Positions 2,243-63,987 are shown, numbered from the stretch's first letter. The stretch is 64,000 bases of DNA from a bacterium (GCA_021801645.1 JAJYXT010000051.1:1451-65450), one strand, 5' to 3'. A program made the numbers and translations. Notes: generated by a model not told the origin, from the sequence alone.

Positions 2243-2253
2243 GGAGACGGCGC

Positions 2254-4486: not shown

Positions 4487-4615
4487 TCGACCGGGTTCCC
4501 CCGCAGGGTTCCCACCCGACCTCCCCGGACGGAGGTGCGCCGCTCCGCTGGAGCCTTCCACATAGCGGTTGTCATGCTACGATGTGGAACAGCTCGACGC
4601 AACCCCGAGGAGGCG

Positions 4616-5377: not shown

Positions 5378-5480
5378 GACGGAGAGCTTACCGCAGGCGC
5401 CCGCGCGGGAAGGGGCGGGCGGGAGCGGAGCGGGTCCGGCCACAATGAGAGGGAAAGGCCAGAACAAGGAGGTGCCATCC

Positions 5481-5900: not shown

Positions 5901-5940
5901 ACTCGGGGCTCGCGGCCCCCGGCGGGGGTCGGCCCCGGAG

Positions 5941-8839: not shown

Positions 8840-9214
8840 TCAGCTCTCCAGAAGGCTGGTGGCCTCGTCTAGGGGATAGTCGAAGCGCAGCACCTCGAAC
8901 TGGTGGTCGACCACCCAGCTGAGGAAGGCGGCGTGCAGCGGGTGGGTTACGTAGGCGTCCATGGCCGCCTGGTCGTCGAATTCGGTGAGCAGGGCGAACT
9001 GGTACCCCATCGCCCGGCCTCCGGTGTCGGCCCCGAAGCGGAGGCGCCTGAGCCCGGGGATCACCCCGGCCCAAGAGGAGATCTGCCGCCGCATCTCGGC
9101 CTCAACCTCAGGTCCCGGCGTGGTGGGAAGGCGGAAGAGCACCAGGTGCTGAACCGCCTTACCACCACCTTCGCCGGATGCCGGCCCCGGGCTAGAAGAA
9201 CTCAAAGTACTCAT
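8840..9214 (-). CDS. Dabb (stress-responsive alpha/beta-barrel) domain protein
   Basis: VQHLVLFRL...DAYVTHPLHAAF fits the Dabb domain. The start overlaps the 3' end of the GS-like gene by 23 nt and is uncertain. Confidence 0.6.
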   Translation of the reverse strand: MSTLSSSSPGPASGEGGGKAVQHLVLFRLPTTPGPEVEAEMRRQISSWAGVIPGLRRLRFGADTGGRAMGYQFALLTEFDDQAAMDAYVTHPLHAAFLSWVVDHQFEVLRFDYPLDEATSLLES

Positions 9215-10667
9215 TCTGCTCCCAGTCGGTGACCGTGGAGAGGAAGCGGGCCACCTCGGCTCGCTTCATCATGATCACGAAGTCGACGATCTCCCGCCCC
9301 AGCTTCTCGCGGAAGAAGGCGTCCCGGTCGAGGGCGTCAACCGCCTCCCAGAGGGAGGCGGGGAGCGGTGTGGCCTCGGCGGCATAGGGGTCAGAGGTGA
9401 CCATGGGCGGAGGCTCCAGCTGGCGGCGGATGCCGTCCAGCCCGGCGGCGATGTTGGCTGCCATGTAGAGGTAGGGATTGGCGGCAGGCTCTCCCAGCCG
9501 GTTCTCCAGATGGGAGCCGGGGTCTCCGGGCTGGCCCTGGACCCGGAGCATGGCGCCCCGGTTCTCCAGCGCCCAGGCCACCCGGTCGGGGGCGAACGAG
9601 TAGGGGCGGAAGCGCTTGAACCCGTTGATGGTGGGCGTGGAGAAGACGGTCATGGGCACGGCGTGCTCCAGGATGCCGGCGGCGAACTGCCGCCCCACGT
9701 CCGACAGCACCTCCTTCGGCCCTCCCTGGAAGGCGTTCTTCCCCCCCTTGAGGTTGCGCAGCGACTCGTGCAGGTGCCACCCGCTGGATGAGACGTTGGG
9801 CAGCAGGGGCCGGCACATGAAGGTGGCGTGGTAGCCCATCCGGTGGCAGACCTGCTTGATAGCCGAGCGCATCAGGATCATGGCGTCGGCGGAGCCCAGG
9901 CCAGGCATGGGGTCGAAGGTGATCTCGGTCTGACCCGGGCCCCACTCGTCCTCGATGCTGCGCAGCGGCAGCCCGATCGCCTCCAGGTGGTCCCGCAGCG
10001 GGTTGAGGATCTCGTCCAGCTGGGCGAGGCGGATCTCTGAGAGGTACTGGTAGCCCTGGGCCACCATGCTCACCGGGGGCGCCACTGGGGGCCATCCGGT
10101 CTGGTCGGGGGCGATCCGGGTCCACTCCCGGCGGGTGATGTAGAACTCCACCTCCAGCCCGCTGACGTACTCGAAGCCCATCTCAGCCGCAGCCTGCAGC
10201 TGGTGGCGCATAACCAGCCGGGTGGAGAGCGGGACCTCCTTGCCGTTGCCGAAGTACATGTCGCAGAGGACCCAACCGGTGGAGTCCGCCCAGGGCAGGA
10301 CCCGGAAGGTCGTGGGGTCGGGGACCAGCACCACGTCAGGGAACCCGGTCAACTCGGGGATGCCCAGTCCGCCCCCCTCCACAAACAGGGGTGGGAAGAC
10401 GTGGTTGGCCGAGTCCATGCTCAGCAGGGCACCGGAGAAGTCCATGCCGTTGCGCATGGAGAGGACGAAGTCCCGGGCGGAGATGAACTTGCCGCGGAGC
10501 GCCCCGTGCTGATCGGCCCACATCGCCCGCACCGTGCGGATCCCCTGGTCCGAGACCTGCGACTCCGCCCGCTCGGCGGCGGCACCCTTGGCCTCATCGT
10601 AGAGACCGTGCTCGGCCACAAAGCCCACCTTGCCCATGGCCAGATCCTGGCTGGGGATGGTCGTCAT
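9192..10667 (-). CDS. Glutamine synthetase family protein (gamma-glutamyl-amine ligase-like, GlnA3/PuuA-like)
   Basis: GS catalytic-domain signatures are present: ATFMCRPL, SSGWHLHESL, NRGAMLRV. Length is 491 aa. Confidence 0.8.
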   Translation of the reverse strand: MTTIPSQDLAMGKVGFVAEHGLYDEAKGAAAERAESQVSDQGIRTVRAMWADQHGALRGKFISARDFVLSMRNGMDFSGALLSMDSANHVFPPLFVEGGGLGIPELTGFPDVVLVPDPTTFRVLPWADSTGWVLCDMYFGNGKEVPLSTRLVMRHQLQAAAEMGFEYVSGLEVEFYITRREWTRIAPDQTGWPPVAPPVSMVAQGYQYLSEIRLAQLDEILNPLRDHLEAIGLPLRSIEDEWGPGQTEITFDPMPGLGSADAMILMRSAIKQVCHRMGYHATFMCRPLLPNVSSSGWHLHESLRNLKGGKNAFQGGPKEVLSDVGRQFAAGILEHAVPMTVFSTPTINGFKRFRPYSFAPDRVAWALENRGAMLRVQGQPGDPGSHLENRLGEPAANPYLYMAANIAAGLDGIRRQLEPPPMVTSDPYAAEATPLPASLWEAVDALDRDAFFREKLGREIVDFVIMMKRAEVARFLSTVTDWEQNEYFEFF

Positions 10668-10703
10668 CGCGCCCTCCTTCTCATTGCTTCTGCCGGCGAA
10701 GGC

Positions 10704-11426
10704 TCAGCCGCCACCCCGCGATCCGGACGTGGCCACCTCGTGTTCTCCCACCTCCACCGTGCTGCCCACGGGAACCAGCCGCCGGTCCGTCGCCCCGGGG
10801 AAGCAGAGTTCGAATACGGCCTGGTCGCCGGAGTGGAGGGCTGTGGCGGCCACCTGCGCCTCCGCGAGCTCGAACCTCCACATGGCGTTCATGGTGGATC
10901 CGGCGTAGGCCAGGGCCGGACCACTGGAGGGAAGGTAGCCGAAGTTGGCCGTCCCGCCGAGCCGGCGGTGAACCTCGATGAGCGCCGACTCCGCCCCCCA
11001 GCCCCCCTGCAGCAGCCGCTGGAGCAACCGGAACCCCACCTCGCTGTCCGCCCGGCCCTGCAGCAGACCGGCAAAGCTCTGGCGTTCCTCGTCGGCCCCG
11101 TCGAGCCGGCCGTTGTGACAGAAGGCGAACTCGCCCCCTTCGGTCCGGAACGGCTGGGTGTCGGCGAGGGAGATCTGGGATAGGTTGGACGGGCGACGGA
11201 GGTGGACCAGGAAGTGGGTGGAGCGCACCGCGGCGGTCTGCGCCCGTCCCTCTGGGTCCTGGGCCAGAGAGCTGGGATGCCGGTGGCTGCGGACCTCCCC
11301 GTCCTCCCTCCACGCGACACCCCACCCGTACCCTCCGAGGCCGAAACGCTCCAGACTCTCCACCCACGGCAGGGCGGCCGCGAAGGGGGTTGGCTCAGGC
11401 CAGGCCACGAGAAGCACTTCACACAC
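10704..11426 (-). CDS. Class II (Ntn) glutamine amidotransferase-like protein
   Basis: The protein begins MCEVLL (Cys2 nucleophile after Met removal), followed by FLVHLRRPS and FCHNG. Confidence 0.7.
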   Translation of the reverse strand: MCEVLLVAWPEPTPFAAALPWVESLERFGLGGYGWGVAWREDGEVRSHRHPSSLAQDPEGRAQTAAVRSTHFLVHLRRPSNLSQISLADTQPFRTEGGEFAFCHNGRLDGADEERQSFAGLLQGRADSEVGFRLLQRLLQGGWGAESALIEVHRRLGGTANFGYLPSSGPALAYAGSTMNAMWRFELAEAQVAATALHSGDQAVFELCFPGATDRRLVPVGSTVEVGEHEVATSGSRGGG

Positions 11427-11431
11427 TCAGG

Positions 11432-12028
11432 TCAAGCTCCACGACGACGGCCGGCCGCGCCCCCCCGACCCGGGGGTGGCTCCGCCTTACGGGCGGCCAG
11501 CAACTGCTGGGCCAGCTCCAGGTCGAAGGCCTTGGGGGGGTGATCGGTGAGCGACAGGAGGGTCTCGGTGCGGTGCACCCCGGGAACCTTCCAGACCCGG
11601 TCGAACAGGCAGTCCCGCAGATGCTGCTGGTCCCGCACCCGGAGCCGCACCAGGAGGTCGGAGGACCCGGTCACTATCTCCACCCGCTCCACTTCGGGCA
11701 GGGCGTTCAGCGCGGCCACCGTCTCGCGCTGCTCCCATCCCTGAACTCCGGTCACCGCCACGAAGGCGGTCACCCCGAATCCCAGGCGTCCCCAGTCGAC
11801 GATCGCCCGATATCCCTGGATGACCCCGGAGCGCTCCAGCCGGGCGATTCGCTCGGCCACCGCCGGAGCTGACATCCCGACCTGCTTGGCGATCTGGCGC
11901 ACCGAGCCGCGCGCGTCCGTGAGCAGGTTGACCAGGATGGCGAGGTCTACGGCGTCGGCCGTGGCCGGCGGCACAGGCTCCACGCCCCGGTTGCCATTGG
12001 TAAGGTGTTTCTCCGCAGCCGCCATCAC
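11432..12028 (-). CDS. Lrp/AsnC-family transcriptional regulator
   Basis: It has the HTH SVRQIAKQVGMSAPAVAERIARLERSGVI followed by a RAM-type ligand domain (VTAFVAV...VERVEIVTGSSDLLVRLRV). A Pro/Gly/Arg-rich C-terminal tail is present. Confidence 0.8.
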   Translation of the reverse strand: MMAAAEKHLTNGNRGVEPVPPATADAVDLAILVNLLTDARGSVRQIAKQVGMSAPAVAERIARLERSGVIQGYRAIVDWGRLGFGVTAFVAVTGVQGWEQRETVAALNALPEVERVEIVTGSSDLLVRLRVRDQQHLRDCLFDRVWKVPGVHRTETLLSLTDHPPKAFDLELAQQLLAARKAEPPPGRGGAAGRRRGA

Positions 12029-17703: not shown

Positions 17704-19014
17704 TCAGAGCCAGCCCCGAAGGGAGCGCTCCACCCCCTCCAGGGTGGGTTCGGCCCGCCGGATCCCCGGCAGTCCCGCCAGGTGCTCCTCGACGTAGGCG
17801 GTGTCCTTGAGCTGGTGCCCGGTGAGAACCAGCACCACCCTAGTCCCCGCGGGGACCTGGCCGCTCTGGCGCATCCTCCGGAGGCCGGCGAGGCTCGCGG
17901 CCGAGGCGGGCTCACATCCCACCCCGAGCTCGGCCAGCCGCCTCTTGGCCGTCTCGATCTCGGAATCCGGCACCGCGGCGGTGAGCCCTCGGGTCCTGAG
18001 GAGCGCCCTCATGGCTCGGGGCCAGTTGGCAGGCCGGCCGATGCGGATCGCGGTCGCCCGGGTCTCAGGATGGTCCTCAGGCACCAGCTCCTCCGCCCCT
18101 GAGGACCACATGCGGTGGAATGGGCTGGCGCCCTCGGCCTGGACCACCCCGAGACGGGGCACATCCGTAACCAACCCCGCGTCGGCCAGCTCCGAGATCC
18201 CCTTGCCCAGTGCGGAGACGTTGCCCAGGTTGCCGCCGGGCAGGATGAGGTAGTCGGGCGGCCGCCAGTCCAGCTGCTCCAAGAGCTCCACCACGGCCGT
18301 CTTCTGCCCCTCCAGGCGGAAGGGGTTGATCGAATTGGCCAGGTAGAGGTTGAGCCGGGGAGCCAGCTGCCGGAGGAGGAGGAACGCCTCGTCGAAGGTC
18401 TGCCCGGCCTGCACCACCATGGCCCCGAAGTCCAGCGCCTGGGCCAGCTTGGCGGCCGTGACCTGCCCCTCGGGCACCAGGACCAGAGCTCGCAGCCCCG
18501 CCCGGGCGGCGTAGGCAGCCATCGAGGCCGAGGTGTTGCCGGTGGAGGCGCAGGCAACCACGCCCCTCCCCAGGGCCCGGGCCTCGGTCACGCAGACGGT
18601 CATCCCGAGGTCCTTGAAGGAGCCGGTGGGGTTGACGCCGAGGTGCTTCACCCAAAGGCTCTCCAGCTGGAGCTCCTCCGCCAGCTGCGGGAGCTCCACG
18701 AGCGGCGTCCCTCCCTCACCCAGGGTGACCGCTTCCACCCCCGCCGGGGTCGAGGGCAACAGCTCCGAGAAGCGCCAAACCCCGCTCCGGCCCGCCGCGT
18801 CCCGGCCGGGCAGGCGCGCGCGCCAGCGCTCCGGCCAGGCGCGGGCCTCCTCCGGGTCCATCTCCAGCACCAGCTCGGCCAGCTGGCCGCAGCGTGGGCA
18901 GGAGTACACGCCATCCTCCCGGCTGAGCCAGGTGCCACAGGCGGGGTCAGAGCAGCGGATCCGGCTGGCCGCCGCGCGCCCGGAAGGGGCGGCGCCGGGG
19001 GACGGTTGGGTCAC
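17704..19014 (-). CDS. thrC: Threonine synthase
   Basis: The PLP lysine motif is TGSFKDLGMTV. It has an N-terminal Cys4 zinc ribbon (CSDPACG...CPRCGQ), ASTGNTSAS, and length 436 aa. Confidence 0.85.
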   Translation of the reverse strand: MTQPSPGAAPSGRAAASRIRCSDPACGTWLSREDGVYSCPRCGQLAELVLEMDPEEARAWPERWRARLPGRDAAGRSGVWRFSELLPSTPAGVEAVTLGEGGTPLVELPQLAEELQLESLWVKHLGVNPTGSFKDLGMTVCVTEARALGRGVVACASTGNTSASMAAYAARAGLRALVLVPEGQVTAAKLAQALDFGAMVVQAGQTFDEAFLLLRQLAPRLNLYLANSINPFRLEGQKTAVVELLEQLDWRPPDYLILPGGNLGNVSALGKGISELADAGLVTDVPRLGVVQAEGASPFHRMWSSGAEELVPEDHPETRATAIRIGRPANWPRAMRALLRTRGLTAAVPDSEIETAKRRLAELGVGCEPASAASLAGLRRMRQSGQVPAGTRVVLVLTGHQLKDTAYVEEHLAGLPGIRRAEPTLEGVERSLRGWL

Positions 19015-19943
19015 GCTGGGATCTCGATCCGTCTCAGCTGGGCCCCCAGGTTGTCGCCCGATGCCACCCGGGTGCTGGCGCTGATCCCGGCCCCGGCGAA
19101 GGCCTCCCGGAAGAGCTCGCTCACCTCGCCCTCGGATCCTCGCACCACCCCCACCACGGATGACCCCGCCCCGCTGAGGAACACCCCCAGCAGATCGGGG
19201 TGCCGCACATCGAGGCAGTCGGCGATGCCCGGGACCAGTTGGGCCCGGCGCCCCTGGTGCAGCCGGTCGGAGAACAGCTCCGGGGTGAGGCTGACGGGGT
19301 CGGAGAAGAACGCTGCCGTGAGCAGAGCCGCCCGCTGCAGATTCCAGGTCACATCCTCGCGATCGTAGCTGGAGGGGAGGACCGCTCGGGACGCGGAGGT
19401 GGGCAGCGCCAGCGCCGGGGTGGCGATCACGAACCGCAGCTGGCTGGGCAAATCGGTGCGCCGGGTGAGGACCTCGGAGGGGCTGTGGGCGGCCACCACG
19501 AAGCCCCCGAGGAGCGCCGCCGCGGCGTTGTCGGGATGACCCTCAAGCCGGGCGGCCACCCCGAGCAGCTCCTCCCGAGAGTGGCCTTCGCCATCCATCT
19601 CCCCACCGATCAGGACACCCGCCACTAGCGCGGCGGCGCTTGACCCCAGCCCCACCCCGATGGGGATCTGACTTCGGACGGCGAGGCGCACTCCGCCGGC
19701 CGCCTCTCCCGTCACCTCCGCCATCGCCCGGCAGATGAGGTTGTCCTGGCCGAGCGGGACCTGCTCGGAATCGGGCCCTTGATACGCCATCTCCACCCCC
19801 CCTTCGGGGATCCAGAGGCACTGGACCTCCAGGTAGAGGTCCAGCGCCAGAGCGGCGGTGTCGAAGGCGCTGCCCAGATTGGCCGAGCTCGCCGGAACCC
19901 GGACCAGGAGCCCTTGGTCCGGGCTACCGCGCAAGGTTGGCAA
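19011..19943 (-). CDS. thrB: Homoserine kinase (GHMP kinase)
   Basis: [13 protein letters not shown] and the GHMP motif [16 protein letters not shown] are present. There is a 4-nt overlap with thrC. Confidence 0.8.
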
Positions 19944-54292: not shown

Positions 54293-55687
54293 TTGACCCT
54301 TCCCTCCACCGTTGGCGAGCTGCGCGGCAGCGAGTACCGGGTCCGCAGCGTGCGAGAGGAGCTGCGCGACAACCTGGTGGCCCGCCTGAGGGCCGGTGAG
54401 CCGGCCTTCCCCGGGCTGGTCGGGTACGAGGACTCGGTCCTTCCCCAGGTGGAAAACGCCATTCTCGCCGGCCAGGACCTCATCTTCCTGGGGGAGCGCG
54501 GGCAGGCCAAGTCGCGGCTGATCCGGGCCCTTGCCGGTCTGCTGGACGAGCGGATCCCGGCGATCTCCGGTAGCGAGGTCAACGACCATCCCTACTCCCC
54601 TATCAGCCGCTTCGGGAGGGAGCTCCTGGCGGAGCGCGGTGACGCCACCCCCATCACCTGGCTGGACCGGGAGCGGCGCTTCGCCGAGAAGCTGGCCACC
54701 CCCGACACTTCCATCGCCGACCTGATCGGCGAGGTCGACCCCATCAAGGTGGCCGAGGGGAGGTATCTCGCCGACGAGTACACGATCCACTACGGGCTGC
54801 TGCCCCGGGTGAACCGTGGGATCTTCGCGGTCAACGAACTCCCGGACCTGGCCGAACGTATCCAGGTCGGATTGCTCAACATCATGGAGGAGCGGGACAT
54901 CCAGATCCGGGGCTTCTTGGTCCGGCTGCCCCTGGACGTCCTGGTGGTGGCCACCGCCAACCCCGAGGACTACACCAACCGGGGCCGGATCATCACCCCC
55001 CTCAAGGACCGCTTCGGGGCCCAGGTGCGCACCCACTACCCCAGGACGGCGGAGCAGGAGGTGGAGATCGTGCGCCAGGAGCAGGCTCCGTTCCAGGGTC
55101 TGCCGGTTGAGCTCCACCTGCCCCAGTACATGCGTGAGGTGGTGGCCGAGATCTCCCAGCTGGCCCGGCGCAATCCCCAGGTGAACCAGCGCTCCGGGGT
55201 GTCGGTGCGGCTGTCCATCGCCAACCAGGAGAGCCTCTGCGCCAACGCGGTGCGGCGGGCCATCCTGCTCCAGGAGCCGCTGGCGGTACCCCGGATCAGC
55301 GACCTGGGGGCCCTGGCCGCTTCCACCACCGGCAAGCTCGAGCTGGAGACCTGGGAGGAGGGGGAGGACGCGCAGCTGCTGTCCAAGCTGACCCGGGGCG
55401 CCGTTCAGAACGTATTCCGCCGCCACTTCTCGCTCGCCGAGTTCGCCCCCCTGCTGGCGCTCTTCGAGCAGGGGCTCTCGGTGGAGGTGGGCGAGATGCT
55501 GAGCTCAGCCGCCTACGCCGCCGCCGCCGCGCAGATCCCCGACACCACCCGTATCCTGGCCGACCTGGACGAGCCCCGGGAACCCGCCGCCGTGGCGGCG
55601 GCGCTGGAGCTGGTCCTGGAGGGACTGCACCTGGCCAAGCGGCTCAACAAGACGACGGTTGACGGGACCGCCGTGTACAACGGCTGA
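54293..55687 (+). CDS. ChlI/BchI-like AAA+ ATPase (often auto-annotated as sigma54-interaction-domain protein)
   Basis: TTG start. The Walker A-like motif is LIFLGERGQAKS and Walker B is GIFAVNELPDL. The sensor/arginine-finger region is VVATANPEDYTNRGRIITPLKDRFG. Confidence 0.75.
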   Translation: MTLPSTVGELRGSEYRVRSVREELRDNLVARLRAGEPAFPGLVGYEDSVLPQVENAILAGQDLIFLGERGQAKSRLIRALAGLLDERIPAISGSEVNDHPYSPISRFGRELLAERGDATPITWLDRERRFAEKLATPDTSIADLIGEVDPIKVAEGRYLADEYTIHYGLLPRVNRGIFAVNELPDLAERIQVGLLNIMEERDIQIRGFLVRLPLDVLVVATANPEDYTNRGRIITPLKDRFGAQVRTHYPRTAEQEVEIVRQEQAPFQGLPVELHLPQYMREVVAEISQLARRNPQVNQRSGVSVRLSIANQESLCANAVRRAILLQEPLAVPRISDLGALAASTTGKLELETWEEGEDAQLLSKLTRGAVQNVFRRHFSLAEFAPLLALFEQGLSVEVGEMLSSAAYAAAAAQIPDTTRILADLDEPREPAAVAAALELVLEGLHLAKRLNKTTVDGTAVYNG

Positions 55688-55694
55688 GGCGCAG

Positions 55695-57677
55695 GTGACA
55701 GCGGCCCGCTACAGCCGCTGGGACGGGACTCAGGACCCCGGAGCCCCTGACCCGCAGGAGGTCTTCTCCCGGCTGGCGGAGGACGTGTTCCAGGGCTGGG
55801 ACTTCGAATCTGCCCTCCGGCGACTGCTGGGGCAGGGCTTTCAGGACCACGAGGGGAACCGCATCCCGGGCTTGGAAGGGCTGCTGGAGCAGCTCCGCCA
55901 GAGACGGCAGGCGGAGCTGCAGCGCTACAGCCTGGAGGGCCTCTTCCAGAACCTCGAGGAGCGGCTGGACCGGATCGTCCAGAGGGAGCGCGGGACACTG
56001 GCCGAACGGCGGAAGGCGGCGCTGGGCCCAGATGGCGAGGGGTCGGTGGGCCGGCTGCTGGCTGCCCGCCAGGAGCAGCTCGACCGGATTCCTCCCGAGA
56101 CCGGCTCCGCCATCCGCTTCCTGCAGGACTACGAGTTCGTGGACCCGGCCGCCGAGTCCGACTTCCGGGAGCTCTTGGACGAGCTTCGGCGCCAGCTGGT
56201 GGAGTCCCACCTGAGACAGGTGGGCGAGCGCCTCGGGGAGATGGGCGGGGCACAGATGGCTCAGCTGAAGGAGATGGTCGCGGACCTCAACTCGATGCTG
56301 GAGCGCCACCTGGCCGGCGAGCCCGATCGCTACGAGCAGTTCATGGAGCGCTGGGGCCAGGCCTTCCCCGACCATCCCGACAATCTGGAGGACTTCGTCC
56401 GCCAGCTGCAGCAGCGGATGGCGGAGATGGAGTCCCTAGTCCAATCGCTCAGCCCCGAGTCCCGAGCGGAGCTGGAGGCGATGATGGCGGCGGCGCTGGA
56501 CGACCCCGGGATCCAGGAGGAGCTGGCCCAGCTAGGCCAGCTGCTCTCAGGACTCGCCCCCGGCGGCCGCCTGGGGGGCAGGATGCAATTCTCCGGCGGG
56601 GAGGAGCTGGACTTCCCCGAGGCCATGGAGGTCATGGGGAGGCTGCGGCGCACCGAGGAGCTGGAGCGAGCGCTGCGAGCCGCCTACCGAGGACAGTCGC
56701 TCAGCGAGGAGCTGCGCTCCGCCCTCCTGGAGGAGCTGGGGCCGGAGGCAGCATCCGGGGTGGCTGCCATCGAGGAGCTGATGGCCGAACTGGCCCGCTC
56801 GGGCCAGCTCAGACTGAGCAGCGAGGGCGCCTCGCTGACCCCCCAGGGGGTGCGCCGGATCGGCCAGAAGGCGCTGGGAGACGTCTTCCGCCGCCTTCCC
56901 CCGGACCGCTTCGGCGGGCATCGCACCGATCGCACCGGTATCGGGGTGGAACCTGGGGACGAGACCAAGAGATACGAGTTCGGCGACCCCTTCCGCCTGG
57001 ATGTGGAGCGCACTGTGCGCAACGCGCTGCGAAGGGGACCGGGCCCTCCACCACTGACCCTGCGGCAGGAGGACTTCGAGGTGGTGCGCTCCGAGAGCCA
57101 GGTGCGGGCCACCACGGTGCTCATGCTGGACATGAGCCGGAGCATGCCGCTGCGGGGCTATTTCTACGCGGCCAAGAAGATGGCCCTGGCGCTGGAGTCC
57201 CTGATCCGCACCCAATACCCCCGCGACACCCTCTACGTGGTGGGGTTCTCCGACTACGCCAGGGAGATCCCCGCGACCGCTCTCGCCGAGCTCTCCTACA
57301 GCGAGTATGTGTACGGCACCAACCTCCAACACGGGCTGATGCTGGCCCGGCGGTTGCTCAGCCGCCACCGCGGGGGAAGCCGCCAGGTGATCGTGGTCTC
57401 GGACGGAGAGCCAACCGCTCACCTGGAGGGGGGGCGGCTGGTCTTCCGCTACCCGCCGCTCCCGGAGACCTTCCACAGGACGCTGGAGGAGGTGCGGCGC
57501 TGCACCGAGGAGCGCATCGTCATCAACACCTTCATGCTGGAGACCAACGGCCACCTGGTCCACTTCGTGCGCCAGCTGACCCGCCTCAATCGGGGGCGGG
57601 CCTTCTTCGTCAGCCCGGACCGGCTGGGAGACTACGTCCTCGTGGACTACGTCAGCGCGCGGGCCGGGAGCGTCTGA
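55695..57677 (+). CDS. VWA-domain protein with a long helical N-terminal region
   Basis: The GTG lies 7 nt after the AAA+ stop. About 400 aa are E/L/R/Q-rich and helical. The VWA domain then has MIDAS VLMLDMSRSM, plus VVGFSDYA and VVSDGEPTAH. Confidence 0.75.
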   Translation: MTAARYSRWDGTQDPGAPDPQEVFSRLAEDVFQGWDFESALRRLLGQGFQDHEGNRIPGLEGLLEQLRQRRQAELQRYSLEGLFQNLEERLDRIVQRERGTLAERRKAALGPDGEGSVGRLLAARQEQLDRIPPETGSAIRFLQDYEFVDPAAESDFRELLDELRRQLVESHLRQVGERLGEMGGAQMAQLKEMVADLNSMLERHLAGEPDRYEQFMERWGQAFPDHPDNLEDFVRQLQQRMAEMESLVQSLSPESRAELEAMMAAALDDPGIQEELAQLGQLLSGLAPGGRLGGRMQFSGGEELDFPEAMEVMGRLRRTEELERALRAAYRGQSLSEELRSALLEELGPEAASGVAAIEELMAELARSGQLRLSSEGASLTPQGVRRIGQKALGDVFRRLPPDRFGGHRTDRTGIGVEPGDETKRYEFGDPFRLDVERTVRNALRRGPGPPPLTLRQEDFEVVRSESQVRATTVLMLDMSRSMPLRGYFYAAKKMALALESLIRTQYPRDTLYVVGFSDYAREIPATALAELSYSEYVYGTNLQHGLMLARRLLSRHRGGSRQVIVVSDGEPTAHLEGGRLVFRYPPLPETFHRTLEEVRRCTEERIVINTFMLETNGHLVHFVRQLTRLNRGRAFFVSPDRLGDYVLVDYVSARAGSV

Positions 57678-57682
57678 TCCGG

Positions 57683-58558
57683 GTGCCGGCCCCTTCCCTG
57701 GATTCCCGGCGGCAGGAGTTCCAGCTCCGCCTGCTGACCCAGCTTCGGGCACGCTACCCCGACTGGTCACTGGAGGCAGCTCCCGATGGCTTCGGGATCC
57801 TCGCCCGCAAGGACCGAGCGAGGGTCACGCTGACCCTGGAGACGCTGTACGGTAGCTGCCGCCAGGAGGAGGCCGCCACTCCGGCGCTGATCTCCAGCTT
57901 CGTGGCGGCGGCGGCGCCCCGTCTGGCCGCTGCCGAGGCGTCTCCGGAGTCCGGGGCCGCGCCCGACCCCGATGCCCTCGTCTGGTGCGTCCGGCTGGAG
58001 AAGGTGGTGCGGGGATACAGCAGGTCCCCGGAGCTGGTCACCCGCCCCCTGCCGGGCGGGCTGCTGGCCTTCGTCTCCGAGGCCCTCCCCGGCGAGGTGA
58101 TGCGCGGGGTGTCGGCGACTGAGGCCGAGGCGGCGGGCCTGTCGGCAGAGCACCTGGCCGAGATGGCAGACCGCAACACCTCTCTGCGGCTCGGGGGGTG
58201 GCGCGAGACCCTGGACCAGCACCCTGGCCAGCGACGCTGGCTCTTCTCGGATGATCCTCTCTTCGCCAGCAGCCTGCTGGTTGTCCCCGAGTTCCTGGCG
58301 GCGCTGGCCCAGCGGGGGGGCGGCGAGGCGGCACTCCTGGTTCCTGATCGGGGAATGGTGGTGGGGGCGGTCGGCGAGGCGGCTGGTCCGCCCCAGCTCC
58401 AGCACCTCTCGCGGCGGCTGTACGGCATGGCCAGGAGCCCGCTCATCCCCCAGGTGCTGGCCACCGACGGCACCACCTTGGTGCTCCACCCCGCCGAGGC
58501 GGTGCCCCGCCGGCCCTGGTCGGGCTGGCGCCAGGTCCTGGGGCTGCGGGAGAGGTGA
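57683..58558 (+). CDS. Conserved-looking hypothetical protein (possibly DUF1444/YtpQ-like)
   Basis: The GTG lies 5 nt after the VWA stop. The codon usage looks like coding sequence. The N-terminus (FQLRLLTQLRARYPDWSLEAAPDGFGILARKDRARVTLTLETLY) is reminiscent of DUF1444, but that is memory only. Confidence 0.5.
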   Translation: MPAPSLDSRRQEFQLRLLTQLRARYPDWSLEAAPDGFGILARKDRARVTLTLETLYGSCRQEEAATPALISSFVAAAAPRLAAAEASPESGAAPDPDALVWCVRLEKVVRGYSRSPELVTRPLPGGLLAFVSEALPGEVMRGVSATEAEAAGLSAEHLAEMADRNTSLRLGGWRETLDQHPGQRRWLFSDDPLFASSLLVVPEFLAALAQRGGGEAALLVPDRGMVVGAVGEAAGPPQLQHLSRRLYGMARSPLIPQVLATDGTTLVLHPAEAVPRRPWSGWRQVLGLRER

Positions 58559-59406
58559 CGGGCCAGCAGGCAGCCGTCGCCCGTGGGATCGCGACGCTGG
58601 CCGAGGAGGCCCGCCGGCGCTACGGGTTGCCACTGGTGCGGGTCCAGGTGCTCGGTCGCGGGGTGATGGGGTCTGTCGGCCTGGCCTCCCAGGAGGAGGC
58701 GGTTCGGCGCCTCATGAGTGGGAGCTGGCCCTCTGGGGAGGTGAGGATCCTGGTGCTGGCCATGCGGCGGGCACGGGTCGGCCTCGGCCCCGGGGTGCTG
58801 CCGCTCAAGATCTGGCGCTCCCCGCTCCCCACCGAACGGGGTGGGCGGGAGCTGACCACCGAGCTCCTGCCGGGCGACCCGCCGGCGGCGCTCCTGGCGG
58901 TCTTTCCCGACCACCTCCTGGTGCGGGCCCCTGGGGAGGCGGTCGGCTGGGTGGACCGGTCCCCCGACCTTCGGTTCGGACCTCCTCCGGCAGCCTTCCA
59001 GAGCCGGGCCTCCTGGGACCCCGAGCTGGTCCTGGATTCAGCGCTGGGCCATCTCGGCAGGCCATACGTCTGGGGTGGCACCGGGGCCGAGGGGCTGGAC
59101 TGCTCGGGACTCGTCTGGCGAAGCTTCCTCGAGGCGGGGGTCCTGCTACCCCGCAACAGCCGGGCGCAACGGCTCCTGGGACGCCGGGTCAGGATCTCCG
59201 AACTGCAGCCGGCTGACCTGGTGGCGGCGCTCAGCCGGGGGCCGGCCCGGCACAGCCACGTGGCCCTGGCCCTGGGGCCGGACGAGGTAGTCCACGCCTG
59301 CAGCGAGACCAGGGCGGTGCGGCGGGAGGCGCTAAAGGACTTCCAGGATCGGTACCAGGTGGTCGCCGTACGCCGGCTTTCGGGCGTCCACCCAGACTCC
59401 CGGTAA
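58555..59406 (+). CDS. Cytoplasmic SH3b + NlpC/P60 (C40) peptidase, YkfC-like
   Basis: It has a GTGA overlap with the upstream stop and no signal peptide. The catalytic Cys is in GRPYVWGGTGAEGLDCSGLVW, with His in HSHVALAL. The upstream segment is SH3b-like (LPLKIWRSP...LLVRAPGEAVGWVD). Confidence 0.75.
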   Translation: MTGQQAAVARGIATLAEEARRRYGLPLVRVQVLGRGVMGSVGLASQEEAVRRLMSGSWPSGEVRILVLAMRRARVGLGPGVLPLKIWRSPLPTERGGRELTTELLPGDPPAALLAVFPDHLLVRAPGEAVGWVDRSPDLRFGPPPAAFQSRASWDPELVLDSALGHLGRPYVWGGTGAEGLDCSGLVWRSFLEAGVLLPRNSRAQRLLGRRVRISELQPADLVAALSRGPARHSHVALALGPDEVVHACSETRAVRREALKDFQDRYQVVAVRRLSGVHPDSR

Positions 59407-59415: not shown

Positions 59416-60951
59416 GTGCTTCCCGCCGCCACGCAGGGCCTCCCGGCATCCGCCGCCCTCCGGGTCCCCTCCCGGCTGGAGGGCCCTCGTGACCGGCGTA
59501 TTGACGTGGTCGGGGTCGGGAGTGTCGAGGGAGGGGAGATGGCTCACTTCCTCCTGGCGGCCGGCTTCACCCGGGTGGTGGGCCATGACCTCAGCCCCGA
59601 CCTCCAGGAGCTCGCCAGGGCTCACCGGCTCGCGCACGCCGGCATGGGTGCCGAGGCAGCTCGGGAACAGCTGGAGGGTCTGCTCGCCGGCCTGGCGGAG
59701 CTCCACCTGGGGGAGCGCTATCTGCAGGGCATCGCGGAGAGCAGCCTGGTGGTGCCCACCCAGGCCTGGTTCCTGCACCCCAGAAACCGCGAGCTGCACC
59801 AGCTCCGGGAGCAGGGCTTCCCCTTCTACTCTCTGATCCAGGCTTACCTGGACCTCTGCCGCGGGCCGGTGCTGGGGGTCACAGGAAGCCACGGCAAGTC
59901 CACCACCTCGGCGCTGGTGGCGCGGGGGCTGAGGGCGATCGCTCCTCTGGTGTGGCTGGCGGGCAACGACCGCCATAACCAGCAGGCGCTGGAGGCGGTG
60001 TCCCGGGACGCTGCCGGCGAGGGGTGGCTGGTGCTGGAGATCTCCAACCGTCAGCTTCTGCAGATGGATCGTGCCCCCAGGGTGGGCTGCATCACCAACA
60101 TCACCCCCAACCACCTGGAGGAGCACGGGGGGATGGACGCCTACGTGGCCTGCAAGCGGCGCATCTACGAGCTCCCCGGTTGTGAGGTGGGGGTCCGCAA
60201 CGCCGACGACCCGGTCAGCTGGGCCGCCGGCCCCCTGCCGCGGGGGGTCCGCCAGGTGTTGTTCGCAAAGGAAGAGGCCGCGCTCGGGGAGAGCGACGGC
60301 TGCTTCGAGGAGGACGGCTGGGCGGTGGTCCGCCGAGGGAAGGAGCGCCGGGCGGTGCTGGAGCTGGACAGCCTGCGCCTGCCCGGCCAGCACAACCGGG
60401 CCAACGTCCGGGCGGCCCTGGCGATGCTGGCCGCCTCGGACGAGGTCCTAGGGCCCCAGCTCCCCGAGGCGGCGCGGGCGCTGGCCGAGCTGCGGCCACT
60501 CCCCCACCGCATCCAGCTGGTCTGGCAACAGGGAGGCGTGGACTACTTCGACGACCTCTCCAGCACCACCCCCCAGTCCACCGTGGCCGCGGTCCGGACG
60601 CTGGCGCGGGAGGTGGTCCTCATCTGCGGGGGTGACGACAAGTCCATCCCCTTCGACGAGCTTGCCGGCCTCGTGGGGCACGAGGTGCGCCAGGTGCTGC
60701 TGCTGCCCGGCACAGGGTCGGCGCGGCTGCTGGAGGCGGTGCGCCGCAGCGGCGGCGGGGCGCTGGTACGGGAGATGGGGAGCCTCGAGGAGGCGGTCCA
60801 GGCGGCCCGCTCCCTGGCTCGCCCGGGAGACGCCGTGCTCCTCTCCCCCGCCTGCCCGGGTTTCTTCTCCGCCCACTATGGAGCGGGAGGCTACCGGCGG
60901 GCCCTCAGGGGCAAACCTACTTCTCCTCGTCCACGAACGGAGCCAGGGTGA
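59416..60951 (+). CDS. MurD-like Mur ligase (divergent paralogue)
   Basis: The Rossmann-like N-domain is IDVVGVGSVEGGEMAHFLL and the P-loop is GVTGSHGKSTT. NITPNHLEEHGGMDAYVACKRRI and HNRANV follow. The C-domain reads DDLSSTTPQS where I recall NDSKATN in E. coli MurD. Confidence 0.7.
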   Translation: MLPAATQGLPASAALRVPSRLEGPRDRRIDVVGVGSVEGGEMAHFLLAAGFTRVVGHDLSPDLQELARAHRLAHAGMGAEAAREQLEGLLAGLAELHLGERYLQGIAESSLVVPTQAWFLHPRNRELHQLREQGFPFYSLIQAYLDLCRGPVLGVTGSHGKSTTSALVARGLRAIAPLVWLAGNDRHNQQALEAVSRDAAGEGWLVLEISNRQLLQMDRAPRVGCITNITPNHLEEHGGMDAYVACKRRIYELPGCEVGVRNADDPVSWAAGPLPRGVRQVLFAKEEAALGESDGCFEEDGWAVVRRGKERRAVLELDSLRLPGQHNRANVRAALAMLAASDEVLGPQLPEAARALAELRPLPHRIQLVWQQGGVDYFDDLSSTTPQSTVAAVRTLAREVVLICGGDDKSIPFDELAGLVGHEVRQVLLLPGTGSARLLEAVRRSGGGALVREMGSLEEAVQAARSLARPGDAVLLSPACPGFFSAHYGAGGYRRALRGKPTSPRPRTEPG

Positions 60952-61084
60952 AGGGGGCTGTCGCCACCACCTCGAAGACCGCCCCGCAGTTGGGGCAGTC
61001 CACCAGCGCCCCCACCTCCTCGTCCCCCAGGAGGTCCAGGTCGGCGCCGCAATCGGGGCAGCAGCGGTCGGATCGGTCGGCCAT
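60917..61084 (-). CDS. LysW-like zinc-ribbon protein (amino-group carrier protein family) with a non-canonical C-terminus
   Basis: The 55-aa product is MADRSDRCCPDCGADLDLLGDEEVGALVDCPNCGAVFEVVATAPFTLAPFVDEEK. It has two CPxCGA knuckles and an acidic tail. GGAG lies 7 nt before the ATG at 61082-61084. Trimmed from the 111-aa track ORF. Confidence 0.65.
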   Translation of the reverse strand: MADRSDRCCPDCGADLDLLGDEEVGALVDCPNCGAVFEVVATAPFTLAPFVDEEK

Positions 61085-61098
61085 CTGGTATCTCCTGC

Positions 61099-62118
61099 GT
61101 GGCGGCGGCTGAGGCCGGCGGCGGGCACCCCCCGCCTCCCAATTTAGCGAAAGCTCCACCATCCCCGCCCCCGACCCCGCTGGAGCCGGCTCCCGAGCTG
61201 GGATCGCTACTGGGGATCGAGGAGCTCTGGTTGAAGCGGGAGGACCTCTCACCGGACGGCTCGCACAAGGGCCGCAGCGCCGAGAGGATGCTGGTGGAGA
61301 TGGCCGCCCAGGGCCATTCAGCCGCAGTGGTCAGCTCCTCGGGCAATGCCGCTCTGGCGCTGGCCCGCCGCGCCGGCGCCCACGGGGTCCGCCTGCTGGC
61401 CCTGGTGTCTCCCCTCACCCCGGCGGTGAAGCTGCGCCGCCTCCTGGCGACCGGCGAGATGGTGGTGGCCAGCCACCACCCGGTGGCTCTGCTGCACCAC
61501 GCCGTGGACCAGTGGGGAATGGCCGACCTGCGCGGCTCGACCAACGAACTGGCGCCTCTCGCCTACCGCCCGCTCGCCGGTGAGCTGGCTCCGGCCGGGC
61601 CCTGGTCGGCGGTCTTCGTGTACAGCTCGAGCGGCGCCACCGCCCTGGGGCTCGGCCAGGGCTGGCGGGAGAGCGGCACGCCCCCCCAGCTCCACCCCGT
61701 GGAAGGGGCCCCCGGAGGTGAGCTGACCCGCCCCTGGTACCGGGGCCAGCCGTCCCTCGAGCCGGCCCCGGTGGGTGAGCTGGGAACTCACCGCAGCCGC
61801 CTCTCCCCCCTGCTTCGCCGGGAGGTGATGCGCAGTGGGGGACGTGGCTGGCGAGTGGGTGCCGGTCAGCTGGCAAAGGTGCGGACCGCCGCCCGTGAGT
61901 GTGGGCTGGAGACCTCCTGGGAGGGGTTGGCGGCACTGGCAGCCGCCTCTCTCTGGTCCGCGGAGGCCGGAGGGCGGACCCTGGTCCTGCTGACCGGGGC
62001 GGGTTGGCAGCTTGACCTGACCCCCTCCCCCACCCCCCTTGCCCCGACGGCGGACACGCCCGCCGAGCTGGATGCGATCCTAGGCCCAGCGGGGTTCCGG
62101 AGGGAGGGAGGACGGTGA
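61099..62118 (+). CDS. Fold-type II PLP-dependent enzyme (Trp-synthase-beta/threonine-synthase-like)
   Basis: TPLEPAPELGSLLGIEELWLKREDLSPDGSHKGRSA matches the SxK[DG]R[GS]A lysine motif, and VVSSSGNAALALA the SSGN motif. The only plausible start is the GTG at 61099. Confidence 0.65.
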   Translation: MAAAEAGGGHPPPPNLAKAPPSPPPTPLEPAPELGSLLGIEELWLKREDLSPDGSHKGRSAERMLVEMAAQGHSAAVVSSSGNAALALARRAGAHGVRLLALVSPLTPAVKLRRLLATGEMVVASHHPVALLHHAVDQWGMADLRGSTNELAPLAYRPLAGELAPAGPWSAVFVYSSSGATALGLGQGWRESGTPPQLHPVEGAPGGELTRPWYRGQPSLEPAPVGELGTHRSRLSPLLRREVMRSGGRGWRVGAGQLAKVRTAARECGLETSWEGLAALAAASLWSAEAGGRTLVLLTGAGWQLDLTPSPTPLAPTADTPAELDAILGPAGFRREGGR

Positions 62119-63344
62119 CCGGCGGCCGGGTGTTCTACGTCGCCCCCGACCCGGTGGCCGCGCTGGGATCGCAGCTGTCTGTCCTGGCTGCCAGCGATGC
62201 CGGACTTGCGGCGGACCCCGGCCGGATCACCGTGGTACCGGGCGGGGGCCGGGCTGGCCGCTCCCTGCTGGACATCCCGGAGGTCGGGCGGAGGCTGCAG
62301 CGGGAGGCGTCGGCAGTGGTCCTCTGGACCGGGTCCGCCGCCGCACGGCGGCGGCTCGCCGAGCTCGGTGTCCCAAGCGCCAACAGCGATCCCCAGATCG
62401 CCCGCCGGCTGGAGAACAAGGCCCACTTCCAGGACGCGGCCCGCGCCCGGGGGATCCCGGTGCCCCGGAGCGTCTCCGGCGTCGCCGGCCCCGCCCTCCT
62501 GGCTGCCGCCTCCCACTGCGGCCGGGCGGTCTTCCAGCTGGCCCGGGGATACTCCGGTGCCGCGACCTTTCCGGTCCAGGACGCCTCCGAGCTTGCCGCG
62601 CTGGTCACCAGGTTTGAGGGCCACCCCTGCCGGGTGGCCGAGTTCATCGAGGGGACGCCGGTCACGGTGACCGGGGTGGCCCTCGAGGAAAGGGTGGCCC
62701 TCGGCCCCCCCTGCCTCCAGCTCACCGGCCTTGCCGAGCTGACCCCGCACCCACTGGGATCCTGCGGCAATGACTTCAGCTCCCCGGTACCGGGAGCGGA
62801 GGCGGTGGCCGAGGTTGCCCAGCGGACCGGCGAGTGGCTCCGGGAGCTCGGCCATCGGGGGATATTCGGGGTGGACCTGGTGGTGGATCCGAAAGGGCGC
62901 CCCTGGTGCATCGAGGTGAACCCGCGGCTGGTGGCCAGCCTGCCGCTCTGGTCGCTCTCCGCGCCTGCCGGCAGCTCGCTGCTCGACCTGCACCTGGCAG
63001 CCTTCGGGCTCGCCGAGGACACCGGGGCCTCCCTGGACTGCCATTGGTCTCAGCTCATCCTCTACCAGCAGGGCAGGGCGGGGAGCGCTGAGGCGCCAGT
63101 GAGCGAGGAGGGAGCGTGGGGCTCGGCCGGAGGCTTCGTTCCCGATCGCCGCCTCACCCTGGCCGGCCCGGGCCTGGGCCGGGTGGGCCTGATCCGGCGG
63201 TCCCCCGCCGGGCCCGGGAAGGAGCTGGCCCGCCTGATCCTCGAGGGTCCCCTCATCGGGGCCGGCGGCGGTCTCCTGCCTCATCTGAGGGCCGCCGTCC
63301 TGGCCCTGCGCGCGGAGCTGGAGCCGGAGCCTGCGCACCAGTAG
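62115..63344 (+). CDS. ATP-grasp ligase
   Basis: It has a GTGA overlap with the PLP-enzyme stop. NKAHFQDAARARGIPVP, VAEFIEGTPVTVTG and FGVDLVVDPKGRPWCIEVNPRL (E-x-N Mg/ATP motif) are present. Confidence 0.7.
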   Translation: MTGGRVFYVAPDPVAALGSQLSVLAASDAGLAADPGRITVVPGGGRAGRSLLDIPEVGRRLQREASAVVLWTGSAAARRRLAELGVPSANSDPQIARRLENKAHFQDAARARGIPVPRSVSGVAGPALLAAASHCGRAVFQLARGYSGAATFPVQDASELAALVTRFEGHPCRVAEFIEGTPVTVTGVALEERVALGPPCLQLTGLAELTPHPLGSCGNDFSSPVPGAEAVAEVAQRTGEWLRELGHRGIFGVDLVVDPKGRPWCIEVNPRLVASLPLWSLSAPAGSSLLDLHLAAFGLAEDTGASLDCHWSQLILYQQGRAGSAEAPVSEEGAWGSAGGFVPDRRLTLAGPGLGRVGLIRRSPAGPGKELARLILEGPLIGAGGGLLPHLRAAVLALRAELEPEPAHQ

Positions 63345-63987
63345 GCCCGAGCCAGTCCAGGACCACCGCGGTGCGGTCGTCCCACTTGCGCCCCACCTCC
63401 ACCAGCGCCTCGGCGGCCATCTGAGCTGAGGACGGCGAGAGAGCCCCGGCCAGCTCCTCCGCACTCAGAACGTCCGGGGAAAAGTCCCCGGTGACGCCGT
63501 CAGTCACCAGAGCCATCCGGTCCCCGGCTTGCAGGTCCAGCCGTCCGCGCTGACGGGTCAGAAGGCCGTCAGGCTCGGGAAACCCGAGGGCCGAGTCGAG
63601 CAGATTCCCCTCGCCCTGGTCCCGGCTCACCTGCACCAGCTCCCGGCCGCGGAGCAGGTAGAGGCGGGAGTCGCCGACCGATAGCCACCAGCCGGCCTCG
63701 CCCACCACCCAGACGGCCGTCACGGTGGTCGCCCCGAGCCCGAGGGCGGCGATCCTGGAGCCGACCGCCTCCACCGCCCGGGCCAGCCGCTCCAGCGGTT
63801 CCCCGGGCAGCCGGCGGCACAGATGGGGCAGCTCCCGAGCGGCGAACTCCGCGGCGCGTTCGCTGCCCTCCACCCCGCCGACGCCGTCGAAGACGGCGAA
63901 CAGCCCAAGTTCCGGGTCCACCAGGAACCGGTCCTGCCCGTGAATCCGGAGCTCAGAGGTGCCCACCGCGACCCTGACGCCCGCCAC
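63253..63987 (-). CDS. PP2C-family Ser/Thr protein phosphatase
   Basis: FAVFDGVGGVEGSERAA, TTVTAV, GDSRLYLL and LVTDGV are PP2C motifs. The frame stays open to the window edge, so the start may lie upstream. The 3' end overlaps the ATP-grasp gene by 92 nt. Confidence 0.75.
   Translation of the reverse strand: MAGVRVAVGTSELRIHGQDRFLVDPELGLFAVFDGVGGVEGSERAAEFAARELPHLCRRLPGEPLERLARAVEAVGSRIAALGLGATTVTAVWVVGEAGWWLSVGDSRLYLLRGRELVQVSRDQGEGNLLDSALGFPEPDGLLTRQRGRLDLQAGDRMALVTDGVTGDFSPDVLSAEELAGALSPSSAQMAAEALVEVGRKWDDRTAVVLDWLGPTGAQAPAPAPRAGPGRRPSDEAGDRRRPR

Follow-up and report, generated by a model that had tools for sequence, protein, structure and literature searches.

A five-gene cassette with a diverged LysW-type protein and its possible role at the MurD step of peptidoglycan synthesis

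The subject of this analysis is a 64,000-nucleotide stretch of bacterial DNA (GCA_021801645.1 JAJYXT010000051.1:1451-65450; hereafter the window, from whose first letter all positions are counted) and, within it, a small gene on the minus strand (60917-61084), the 55-residue product of which resembles the carrier protein LysW. This gene was found to be part of a cassette of five, the other members of which encode an NlpC/P60 peptidase, a Mur ligase derived from MurD, a pyridoxal phosphate (PLP) enzyme that resembles threonine synthase (ThrC), and an ATP-grasp ligase. We put the probability at about 0.5 that the five genes constitute a module that works in peptidoglycan precursor synthesis at the MurD step, where D-Glu enters position 2 of the stem peptide, and that the small protein is the carrier of this module. 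The searchable full-text literature on LysW and the amino-group carrier proteins (AmCPs), on the Mur enzymes, on the Candidate Phyla Radiation (CPR) and on the Chloroflexi, which covers few subscription journals, holds no description of the cassette. The initial annotation of the DNA, which could map the gene set to no described pathway, thus holds on this point.

The cassette and the murD slot

In the window the gene of the peptidase (58555-59406, plus strand) is followed by that of the ligase (59416-60951, plus strand), by the small gene, and by the genes of the PLP enzyme (61099-62118, plus strand) and the ATP-grasp ligase (62115-63344, plus strand). As described in the initial annotation, the ligase gene converges on the small gene, and the last two genes overlap by a GTGA and are translationally coupled. 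The triad of zinc ribbon, PLP enzyme and ATP-grasp ligase that was put forward there is sound but incomplete, as the unit comprises five genes and includes the NlpC/P60 peptidase. An alignment of homologues of the ATP-grasp ligase, with one genome per species, provided 59 genome loci, and profile searches of the open reading frames (ORFs) of these loci recovered all five genes in 43 of them. Another 14 are truncated by contig ends, and two (L010 and L041) have no adjacent peptidase gene. The latter are contigs of metagenome-assembled genomes (MAGs) of Dormibacterota (1-7292 and 1-1909, respectively) in which no P60 gene precedes the ligase; the 90% identity of L010 to the window begins exactly at the start codon of the ligase, and both cases could represent a rearrangement or a chimeric assembly. 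In every locus with sufficient flanking DNA the small gene is accompanied by the PLP enzyme and the ATP-grasp ligase. It had been anticipated that the small ORF might lack conservation, that its tail might vary freely or that its neighbours might not recur; none of this was seen, as the ORF is conserved, the tail is constrained and the neighbours co-occur.

The cassette is found in Dormibacterota (up to 90% DNA identity to the window), Anaerolineae and Caldilineae, and also in MAGs deposited under the labels Proteobacteria, Planctomycetota or Solibacter. Five contigs deposited as Acidiferrales, Nanopelagicaceae, Micrarchaeaceae/Micrarchaeia archaeon and Verrucomicrobiia (L019, L020, L031, L040 and L043) are syntenic with the Dormibacterota loci and encode an ATP-grasp ligase that is 45-53% identical to that of the window; they are probably mislabelled bins. 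In the Chloroflexota all five genes point in the same direction, and the peptidase and ligase form a single protein of 855-890 residues, with the P60 domain N-terminal to the ligase (L007, L056, L059, L061, L063, L070 and L071). Moreover, the PLP enzyme and the ATP-grasp ligase share one reading frame in two loci (L053 and L058). The two fusions imply that the cassette consists of two functional pairs plus the carrier. All cassette enzymes retain their catalytic residues. The flanks of the Chloroflexota cassettes hold housekeeping genes (folD, aconitase and hisS) and no secondary-metabolite cluster.

The most informative context was encountered in low-GC bacteria. The first cases were two representatives with the Glu-Glu-Lys (EEK) type of tail described below, both from low-GC contigs, whose cassettes lie in the division and cell wall (dcw) cluster; two further EEK-type proteins come from contigs of about 1 kb only. 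A metagenome scan that was queried with low-GC sequences of the PLP enzyme yielded 58 cassette loci, 36 of which have dcw neighbours and 23 of which are located between mraY and ftsW. For 21 of these 23 the distance between mraY and ftsW is 2.5-3.4 kb and exactly filled by the genes of the peptidase, the carrier candidate, the PLP enzyme and the ATP-grasp ligase, so that the gap holds no MurD and has no space for a murD gene of 1.35 kb. A cassette-type ligase adjoins ftsW in L072, L090 and L093, with mraY in view in L072 and L093 only. The gene order in L072 is mraY, a PaaX-like gene, a P60-like gene, the cassette-type ligase, the small gene on the opposite strand, the PLP enzyme, the ATP-grasp ligase and ftsW, and downstream of ftsW follow murG, an ftsQ-like gene and ftsA. 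The same order, but without any ligase, is present in L074 and L075. The PaaX-like regulator gene of L072, which separates mraY from the P60-like gene, occupies positions 9383-10147 of that locus.

Upstream of mraY in the low-GC clusters the NCBIfam models recognised MurE, which scores above its cut-off with 311-422 bits, as well as ligases similar to MurC/Mpl and to MurF, and they did not identify a MurD in these dcw clusters. That the cassette takes over the murD slot is strong guilt-by-position evidence for a function at the MurD step. The initial annotation had imagined a free-standing amino-acid or peptide pathway around a LysW-like protein. The diverged LysW-type protein has stood up to scrutiny; the free-standing pathway has not, as the murD slot places the set in the context of peptidoglycan precursor synthesis. 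As for the other low-GC Mur ligases, the MurC-like and MurF-like proteins (L100, 5580-6914; L083, 2021-3436 and 6697-7947) remain under the equivalog cut-offs (204-262 versus 335 for the MurC-like proteins, with a nearly equal score for Mpl, and 233 versus 289 for the MurF-like ones). Both may simply be divergent, or the MurC-like protein may accept a preformed peptide like Mpl.

The ligase of the window contains the Mur_ligase_M and Mur_ligase_C domains and scores 195 bits on the murD model TIGR01087, against a cut-off of 211.95, in keeping with its earlier description as MurD-like; the homologue in L093 reaches 247 bits and passes that cut-off. The MurD N-domain PF21799 was not matched, and this domain is carried by true MurDs only, not by the cassette ligases. 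We aligned 68 cassette ligases with 21 true MurDs, using the numbering of E. coli MurD. The equivalents of H183, K198, N138, S159, D317, T321 and K348 are invariant in all 68, and the wider catalytic set (the P-loop and the equivalents of E157, N268/N271 and R302), checked on 13 cassette ligases, is present as well. Position 415, on the other hand, is Ser in each of the 21 true MurDs and in none of the 68 cassette ligases (G, F, Y or H), and it is followed in the latter by a two-residue deletion that removes a conserved Arg-Gly. Further changes comprise the replacement of F161 by Arg (66 of 68; SSFQ becomes SNRQ), the insertion of 17 residues into the N domain and of Trp-Phe into the SPG loop, and the conversion of GNIG to GNDRHxxQ. 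Pro takes the place of A414 in 52 of 68, the same change as in the L-Glu ligase MurD2 (PMC8788868). L416 is replaced by Phe in 61 of 68, a residue that is non-discriminating because it also occurs in 12 of the 21 true MurDs. The N domain retains a Rossmann-like GxG loop and the equivalent of Asp35; the positions of Thr36 and Arg37 vary among true MurDs as well. Of the two carboxylates of D-Glu mimics, the one adjacent to the nitrogen is bound in E. coli MurD by Lys348 and Thr321, and the distal one by Ser415 and Phe422 (PMC3527612). The conservation of T321 and K348 together with the loss of Ser415 thus suggests that the cassette ligase expects an alpha-amino acid without a free gamma-carboxylate.

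The peptidase (283 residues, isoelectric point (pI) 10.9) was recognised by profile search and by matches to NlpC/P60 structures in the PDB (1e-14 to 1e-7), which include 3npf, 3pvq and 3h41 of the YkfC/dipeptidyl-peptidase VI type; within NCBIfam only NlpC/P60 models were hit, all below threshold. Its catalytic Cys lies within GLDCSGLV (the DCSG motif). Reading the sequence by eye, no N-terminal hydrophobic signal is visible, and the fusion to an ATP-dependent ligase in the Chloroflexota indicates that the peptidase is cytoplasmic. The low-GC versions obtain 23.8, 22.1, 20.2 and 16 bits, with a Pfam gathering score of 23.

The PLP enzyme is of fold-type II (Pfam PALP, 102.8 bits), with the PLP lysine in the motif LKREDxxPxGSHKxR and an invariant SSSGNAA loop. 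A profile built from 14 orthologues matched threonine synthases over their full length (6cgq, 2zsj, 2d1f and 1uim; 2e-27 to 6e-21), and serine and aspartate racemases were also among the matches. The NCBIfam models of ThrC, CysM and SbnA all remain far below cut-off (ThrC, 39.5 versus 303). Moreover, the ThrC loops GNTSA, PYR and GNAGN, which we take to have a role in phosphate binding, correspond to GNAAx, PLA and SSGxS in the cassette enzyme. As judged from these profiles and motifs, the protein is threonine-synthase-like but not ThrC. A CysM-type identity was considered and rejected, as the profile is ThrC-like and the matches to CysM are partial and weaker; the parallel with CysM and CysO drawn in the initial annotation loses its basis in the same way.

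The ATP-grasp ligase (409 residues; ATP-grasp_3, 37.9 bits) had been described as not looking like RimK, and indeed scores 19.4 bits on the rimK_fam model TIGR00768, against a cut-off of 143.4. Its AlphaFold2 (AF2) model is of high confidence (predicted local distance difference test score, pLDDT, 94) and has PurK, PurD, biotin carboxylase and PylC as best Foldseek matches (template modelling score about 0.6), not LysX. Sequence and profile matches in the PDB are weak and local (carbamoyl-phosphate synthetase, BesA and PGM1). A LysX-like role was ruled out, since a RimK/LysX signal was found neither with profiles nor with Foldseek.

The carrier candidate and its lysine end

The product of 60917-61084 reads MADRSDRCCPDCGADLDLLGDEEVGALVDCPNCGAVFEVVATAPFTLAPFVDEEK. 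Its ATG is preceded at 5 nt by a GGAGAT Shine-Dalgarno sequence, and the protein, with a pI of 4.05, contains four Cys residues in two CxxC pairs (CPDC...CPNC) and continues in an extended acidic tail. The resemblance to LysW that was noted at the outset is borne out at three levels. The Pfam family PF21344 (Zn_ribbon_LysW) is matched with 45.5 bits (gathering score 27); the best PDB matches are the LysW proteins of Thermus (3wwl) and Thermococcus (5k2m), both with an E-value around 1e-7; and the AF2 model (mean pLDDT 79, secondary structure ending at residue 38) retrieved LysW chains as its top four Foldseek matches. The GC content at third codon positions is 0.93, and the ratio of non-synonymous to synonymous polymorphism (pN/pS) against 15 orthologues is 0.00-0.47. 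The ORF is a real gene and LysW-like. The two NCBIfam models of the LysW family stay below their cut-offs (TIGR01206, 38.5 versus 53.2; NF041070, 35.6 versus 75).

What sets the protein apart is its C-terminus. The initial annotation had drawn attention to an altered tip, DEEK, and this proved to be a general feature. The tail in the window ends in APFVDEEK, with a terminal Lys instead of a terminal Glu; DEEK is found in all 14 close homologues, and in the homologues of the Chloroflexota the end reads FEEEEK. EEK terminates each of the 60 small ORFs from genome and contig loci and 52 of the 54 from the metagenome scan, all 54 of which end in Lys; the two exceptions read EKEK and AMK. Together this amounts to EEK in 112 of approximately 114 related loci and to a Lys at the end of every one. 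When 1.8 billion representative proteins were searched with a profile, about 22 of the top 150 clusters proved to be of the EEK type; they are distinct from about a dozen LysW clusters of the EDWGE type and from many proteins with other acidic tails. In the canonical carrier of T. kodakarensis the substrate sits on the C-terminal Glu, E53 (PMC12998189); the LysW chains in the PDB count 53 and 54 residues. The LysW-like zinc ribbons as a whole are far more diverse than their two known uses would suggest: many have long poly-acidic tails that end in neither EDWGE nor EEK, some have Arg-rich basic tails, and some larger proteins contain 2-10 tandem copies of the ribbon.

The genes that normally accompany lysW are missing. 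Pfam scans of 50 further ORFs of the window detected no AA_kinase, Semialdhyde_dh, Aminotran_3, M20 or RimK protein, and lysX/Z/Y/J/K genes occur neither in the 64 kb of the window, as had been stated for lysZ/Y/J/K before, nor beside the small gene in any of the related loci. Because the terminal Glu and the partner enzymes that define the functional LysW family were looked for and are both lacking at these loci, the small protein is, by its sequence features, classified as a LysW-type protein that has diverged and whose unusual C-terminus is conserved, rather than as a member of that functional family.

The 3' end of the small gene overlaps that of the ligase gene on the opposite strand by 35 nt (60917-60951). 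The inversion of the small gene relative to the four enzyme genes, with the 3' overlap, recurs in L001, L003-L006, L010-L050 and L072-L120, and is common to the high-GC Dormibacterota and the low-GC loci embedded in dcw clusters; in the Chloroflexota the small gene is co-directional with the others. The maintenance of this antisense overlap across distant lineages suggests a control of carrier dosage. Scans for promoters, terminators, Rfam families and tRNAs around the small gene returned nothing.

A proposed route and the competing explanations

The combination of features described above can be accommodated in a scheme in which the LysW fold would have been turned into a carrier of carboxyl groups: Glu would be tethered to the protein, epimerised there and passed on to the peptidoglycan precursor, in large uncultured lineages that would do without a canonical MurD or glutamate racemase. 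We regard this as a tentative possibility. The lineages in question would be the low-GC, probably Patescibacteria-like bacteria and possibly the Dormibacterota and Anaerolineae. The role of the terminal Lys as a carboxyl handle is suggested by the requirement of the PLP enzyme for a free amine, as tethering of the LysW type would block that amine.

The detailed chemistry, which we consider rather unlikely to be correct in all its parts, would consist of four steps. In the first, the ATP-grasp ligase would couple the gamma-carboxyl of L-Glu to the N-epsilon of the C-terminal Lys55 of the carrier. The polarity would be opposite to that of LysW: the carboxyl group would be held, and the alpha-amino group of the substrate would remain free. 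In the second, the ThrC-like enzyme would bind this alpha-amine and invert the C-alpha; its ancestral substrate, O-phosphohomoserine, is an amino acid with the same four-carbon skeleton and also bears a bulky substituent at the gamma position. In the third, the MurD-derived ligase would couple UDP-MurNAc-L-Ala to the tethered D-Glu, which would fit the retention of its alpha-carboxylate pocket and the loss of its gamma-carboxylate pocket. Finally the peptidase, a member of a family that cuts gamma-D-Glu-|-Lys/diaminopimelate bonds, would free the dipeptide precursor and the carrier. The order of the steps matches the two fusions, with one pair to tether and invert and one pair to ligate and release. 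In addition, the carrier candidate is acidic whereas the peptidase is basic, and docking in known carrier systems is electrostatic (PMC11726168). MurD2/MurL is an earlier example of a new solution to the D-Glu step (PMC8788868).

Several observations weigh against the assignment of the cassette to the MurD step. In the window and the other high-GC loci there is no dcw gene and no true MurD within 10 kb of the cassette. The 21 loci without a Mur ligase show that the third step is not universal, and there the ATP-grasp ligase or a distant MurD would be needed. In the ligase, the N-terminal domain has been reshaped to a degree that the MurD N-domain model no longer matches it, and binding of UDP-MurNAc-L-Ala is therefore not assured. 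Furthermore, the closest relatives of the PLP enzyme are synthases and dehydratases, not racemases, and the likeness of the ATP-grasp ligase to BesA is local and weak.

The small protein might also act within a cell-wall module without carrying anything. As a non-covalent scaffold or regulator it would present a Glu-Lys-COOH end that mimics the end of UDP-MurNAc-tripeptide, and organise or gate the ligase and the peptidase. The tail indeed resembles the stem tripeptide at its Glu-Lys end, which NlpC/P60 peptidases and Mur ligases, judged as families, would recognise, and the inverted, antisense-overlapped gene in two distant lineages is suggestive of dosage control. However, all characterised members of the LysW-fold family are covalent carriers (PMC11726168), and two ATP-dependent amide ligases and an amidase that co-evolve with an invariant terminal residue better suit covalent chemistry. 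As this explanation also leaves the PLP enzyme without a role, we judge it unlikely.

ThrC-like PLP enzymes and ATP-grasp ligases are typical of gene clusters for peptide antimetabolites such as rhizocticin and dapdiamide, and carriers with an extra C-terminal residue that is removed by the releasing hydrolase exist in HcyS and QbsE. The cassette could make, on its carrier, a small peptide or non-proteinogenic amino acid with no relation to the cell wall, of the diamino-dihydroxy-heptanoate (DADH)/vazabitide or pearlin type. The encoded Lys would then act as a substrate loaded in advance or as a mimic of the product-bound state, with the peptidase releasing the product and the ligases reloading the carrier. 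The MetO/MetM system, cited in the GapMind 2026 preprint, provides another precedent, and the location of the cassette outside the dcw cluster in high-GC lineages is in line with such a function. Nevertheless, the cassette is vertically conserved across whole lineages amid housekeeping genes and is not accompanied by transporter, regulator or tailoring genes, it occupies the murD slot in 23 loci, and the cassette ligase keeps the full MurD catalytic set. A metabolite of this kind seems to us quite unlikely.

It is improbable, too, that the co-location reflects shared regulation rather than a single pathway, with the PLP enzyme and the ATP-grasp ligase as an unusual pair of racemase and D-Ala-D-X ligase for the terminus of the stem peptide, the Mur ligase as a divergent MurD and the peptidase as a recycling enzyme. 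Racemases of PLP fold-type II do exist, Ddl is an ATP-grasp enzyme, and the low-GC dcw clusters lack ddl after murG and mostly lack a MurC above cut-off. Yet the ATP-grasp ligase shows no match to the Ddl family above noise, it is murD and not ddl that has been replaced in the 21 loci, and the loss of Ser415 argues against free D-Glu as an ordinary substrate. Moreover, the carrier candidate and its invariant Lys are left unexplained. Finally, an ordinary LysW for lysine biosynthesis via alpha-aminoadipate or for arginine biosynthesis, with LysX/Z/Y/J/K encoded elsewhere, as the annotation by NCBI and JGI and the database name 'lysine biosynthesis protein LysW' of the homologues imply, is hardly credible and was ruled out as an identity by tail, scores and gene context: although the Pfam domain is present and the fold matches LysW structures, both NCBIfam cut-offs are missed, the C-terminus is Lys and never the substrate-bearing Glu, and in about 114 loci the gene is never adjacent to lysX/Z/Y/J/K-type genes and always adjacent to the cassette enzymes, in 36 of them within dcw clusters.

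Related systems, other genes of the window and significance

The assignment to the MurD step, with the small protein as carrier, can be compared with several known systems. The LysW/ArgW systems (Thermus, Sulfolobus, Thermococcus, and the AmCPs of Streptomyces and Serratia) share with the cassette the small zinc-ribbon fold of the carrier, its pI around 4 and its flexible C-terminal extension, and also the partnership with an ATP-dependent amide ligase. They differ in the tail (a terminal Glu, EDWGE, versus Glu-Glu-Lys) and in the partners. The cassette loci have no LysX/RimK ligase, kinase, reductase, aminotransferase or M20 hydrolase, and instead contain a Mur ligase, an NlpC/P60 peptidase, a ThrC-like PLP enzyme and a non-RimK ATP-grasp ligase in a cell-wall context. 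All known AmCP pathways employ an aminotransferase (PMC11726168).

The MurD2/MurL system of Xanthomonas and Micromonospora also combines a MurD paralogue that has a changed Glu pocket with an ATP-using partner, and produces D-Glu without MurI or Dat. In the window the sole class-IV aminotransferase is IlvE. The cassette ligase has the Pro at the A414 position in common with MurD2, and also the Phe at the L416 position, which is common in true MurDs; in contrast to MurD2, it keeps K348 where MurD2 has Arg, and it has lost Ser415. There is no MurL homologue, four accessory proteins including the carrier candidate and the PLP enzyme are present, and the phylogenetic range is different. With MurD itself the ligase shares the three-domain architecture, the P-loop and the position of the carbamylated Lys, and in L072 and L093 the position of murD. 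The analogy with cyanophycin synthetase in the initial annotation did not survive: there were trace matches only, and the ligase is derived from MurD and carries the MurD catalytic residues.

In the CysO/CysM/Mec, MetO/MetM and HcyS/MetY/HcyD systems a fold-type II PLP enzyme (ThrC-like in the case of MetM) acts on the C-terminus of a carrier, as proposed here, and a dedicated hydrolase frees the product in a manner comparable to the proposed action of the cassette peptidase. However, their carriers are beta-grasp proteins with a Gly-Gly end, activated by E1-like adenylation and loaded with sulfur cargo, whereas the carrier candidate of the cassette is a zinc ribbon with a Lys end and the activating enzymes of the cassette form acyl phosphates. 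A cytoplasmic papain-like amidase of the NlpC/P60 or CHAP type that acts on gamma-glutamyl amides, as is envisaged for the cassette peptidase, is known from the gamma-D-glutamyl-L-diamino-acid endopeptidases of the YkfC/dipeptidyl-peptidase VI type and from glutathionylspermidine synthetase/amidase (GspSA). In GspSA the amidase is fused to an ATP-dependent ligase that works on the same bond. The similarity of the cassette peptidase to these enzymes is confined to the catalytic domain, and where it is fused, the partner is a Mur ligase instead of an ATP-grasp protein.

Upstream of the cassette lie, on the plus strand, the genes of a MoxR-type AAA+ ATPase (54293-55687), a VWA protein of the Rv0959 type (55659-57677) and a 291-residue protein without Pfam or NCBIfam match (57683-58558), the last of which overlaps the peptidase gene by 4 nt. 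This tightly packed trio is kept upstream of the cassette throughout the Dormibacterota loci but is absent beside it in the Chloroflexota and low-GC loci, and is not considered part of the core. On the other side a gene for a PP2C-type Ser/Thr phosphatase (63253-63987, minus strand) converges on the ATP-grasp gene with a 3' overlap of about 90 nt; its position is kept in the closest relatives (L010-L016), and in more distant Dormibacterota dnaJ is found there. Elsewhere in the window a canonical thrB-thrC pair (17704-19943, minus strand) includes a true thrC (17704-19014, minus strand; TIGR00260, 260.9 versus a cut-off of 167.1), which implies that the ThrC-like enzyme of the cassette is a second, non-housekeeping paralogue. 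Finally, at 9192-12028 (minus strand) a glutamine-synthetase-like protein, for which the models of type III glutamine synthetase and gamma-glutamylputrescine synthetase both remain below cut-off, is encoded beside a class-II amidotransferase-like protein and an AsnC regulator. From these similarities it looks like a putative catabolic unit for gamma-glutamylation.

D-Glu at stem position 2 and MurD, a drug target, are considered universal features of peptidoglycan synthesis. The MurD2/MurL system is the only alternative that has been described; if the cassette indeed serves the MurD step, it would represent a second one, based on a carrier protein, and the reconstruction of cell-wall synthesis would change for Dormibacterota, Chloroflexota and many uncultured low-GC bacteria. 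At present a systematic mis-annotation, in which the carrier candidate goes by the name of a lysine-biosynthesis protein and the ligase by that of MurD, hides the gap. Should the small protein truly tether carboxyl groups, the concept of the LysW carrier would widen from the tethering of amino groups to that of carboxyl groups, and the cassette would be a shared derived character of its host lineages. The supply of D-Glu in the lineages that bear the cassette becomes directly testable with five small genes.

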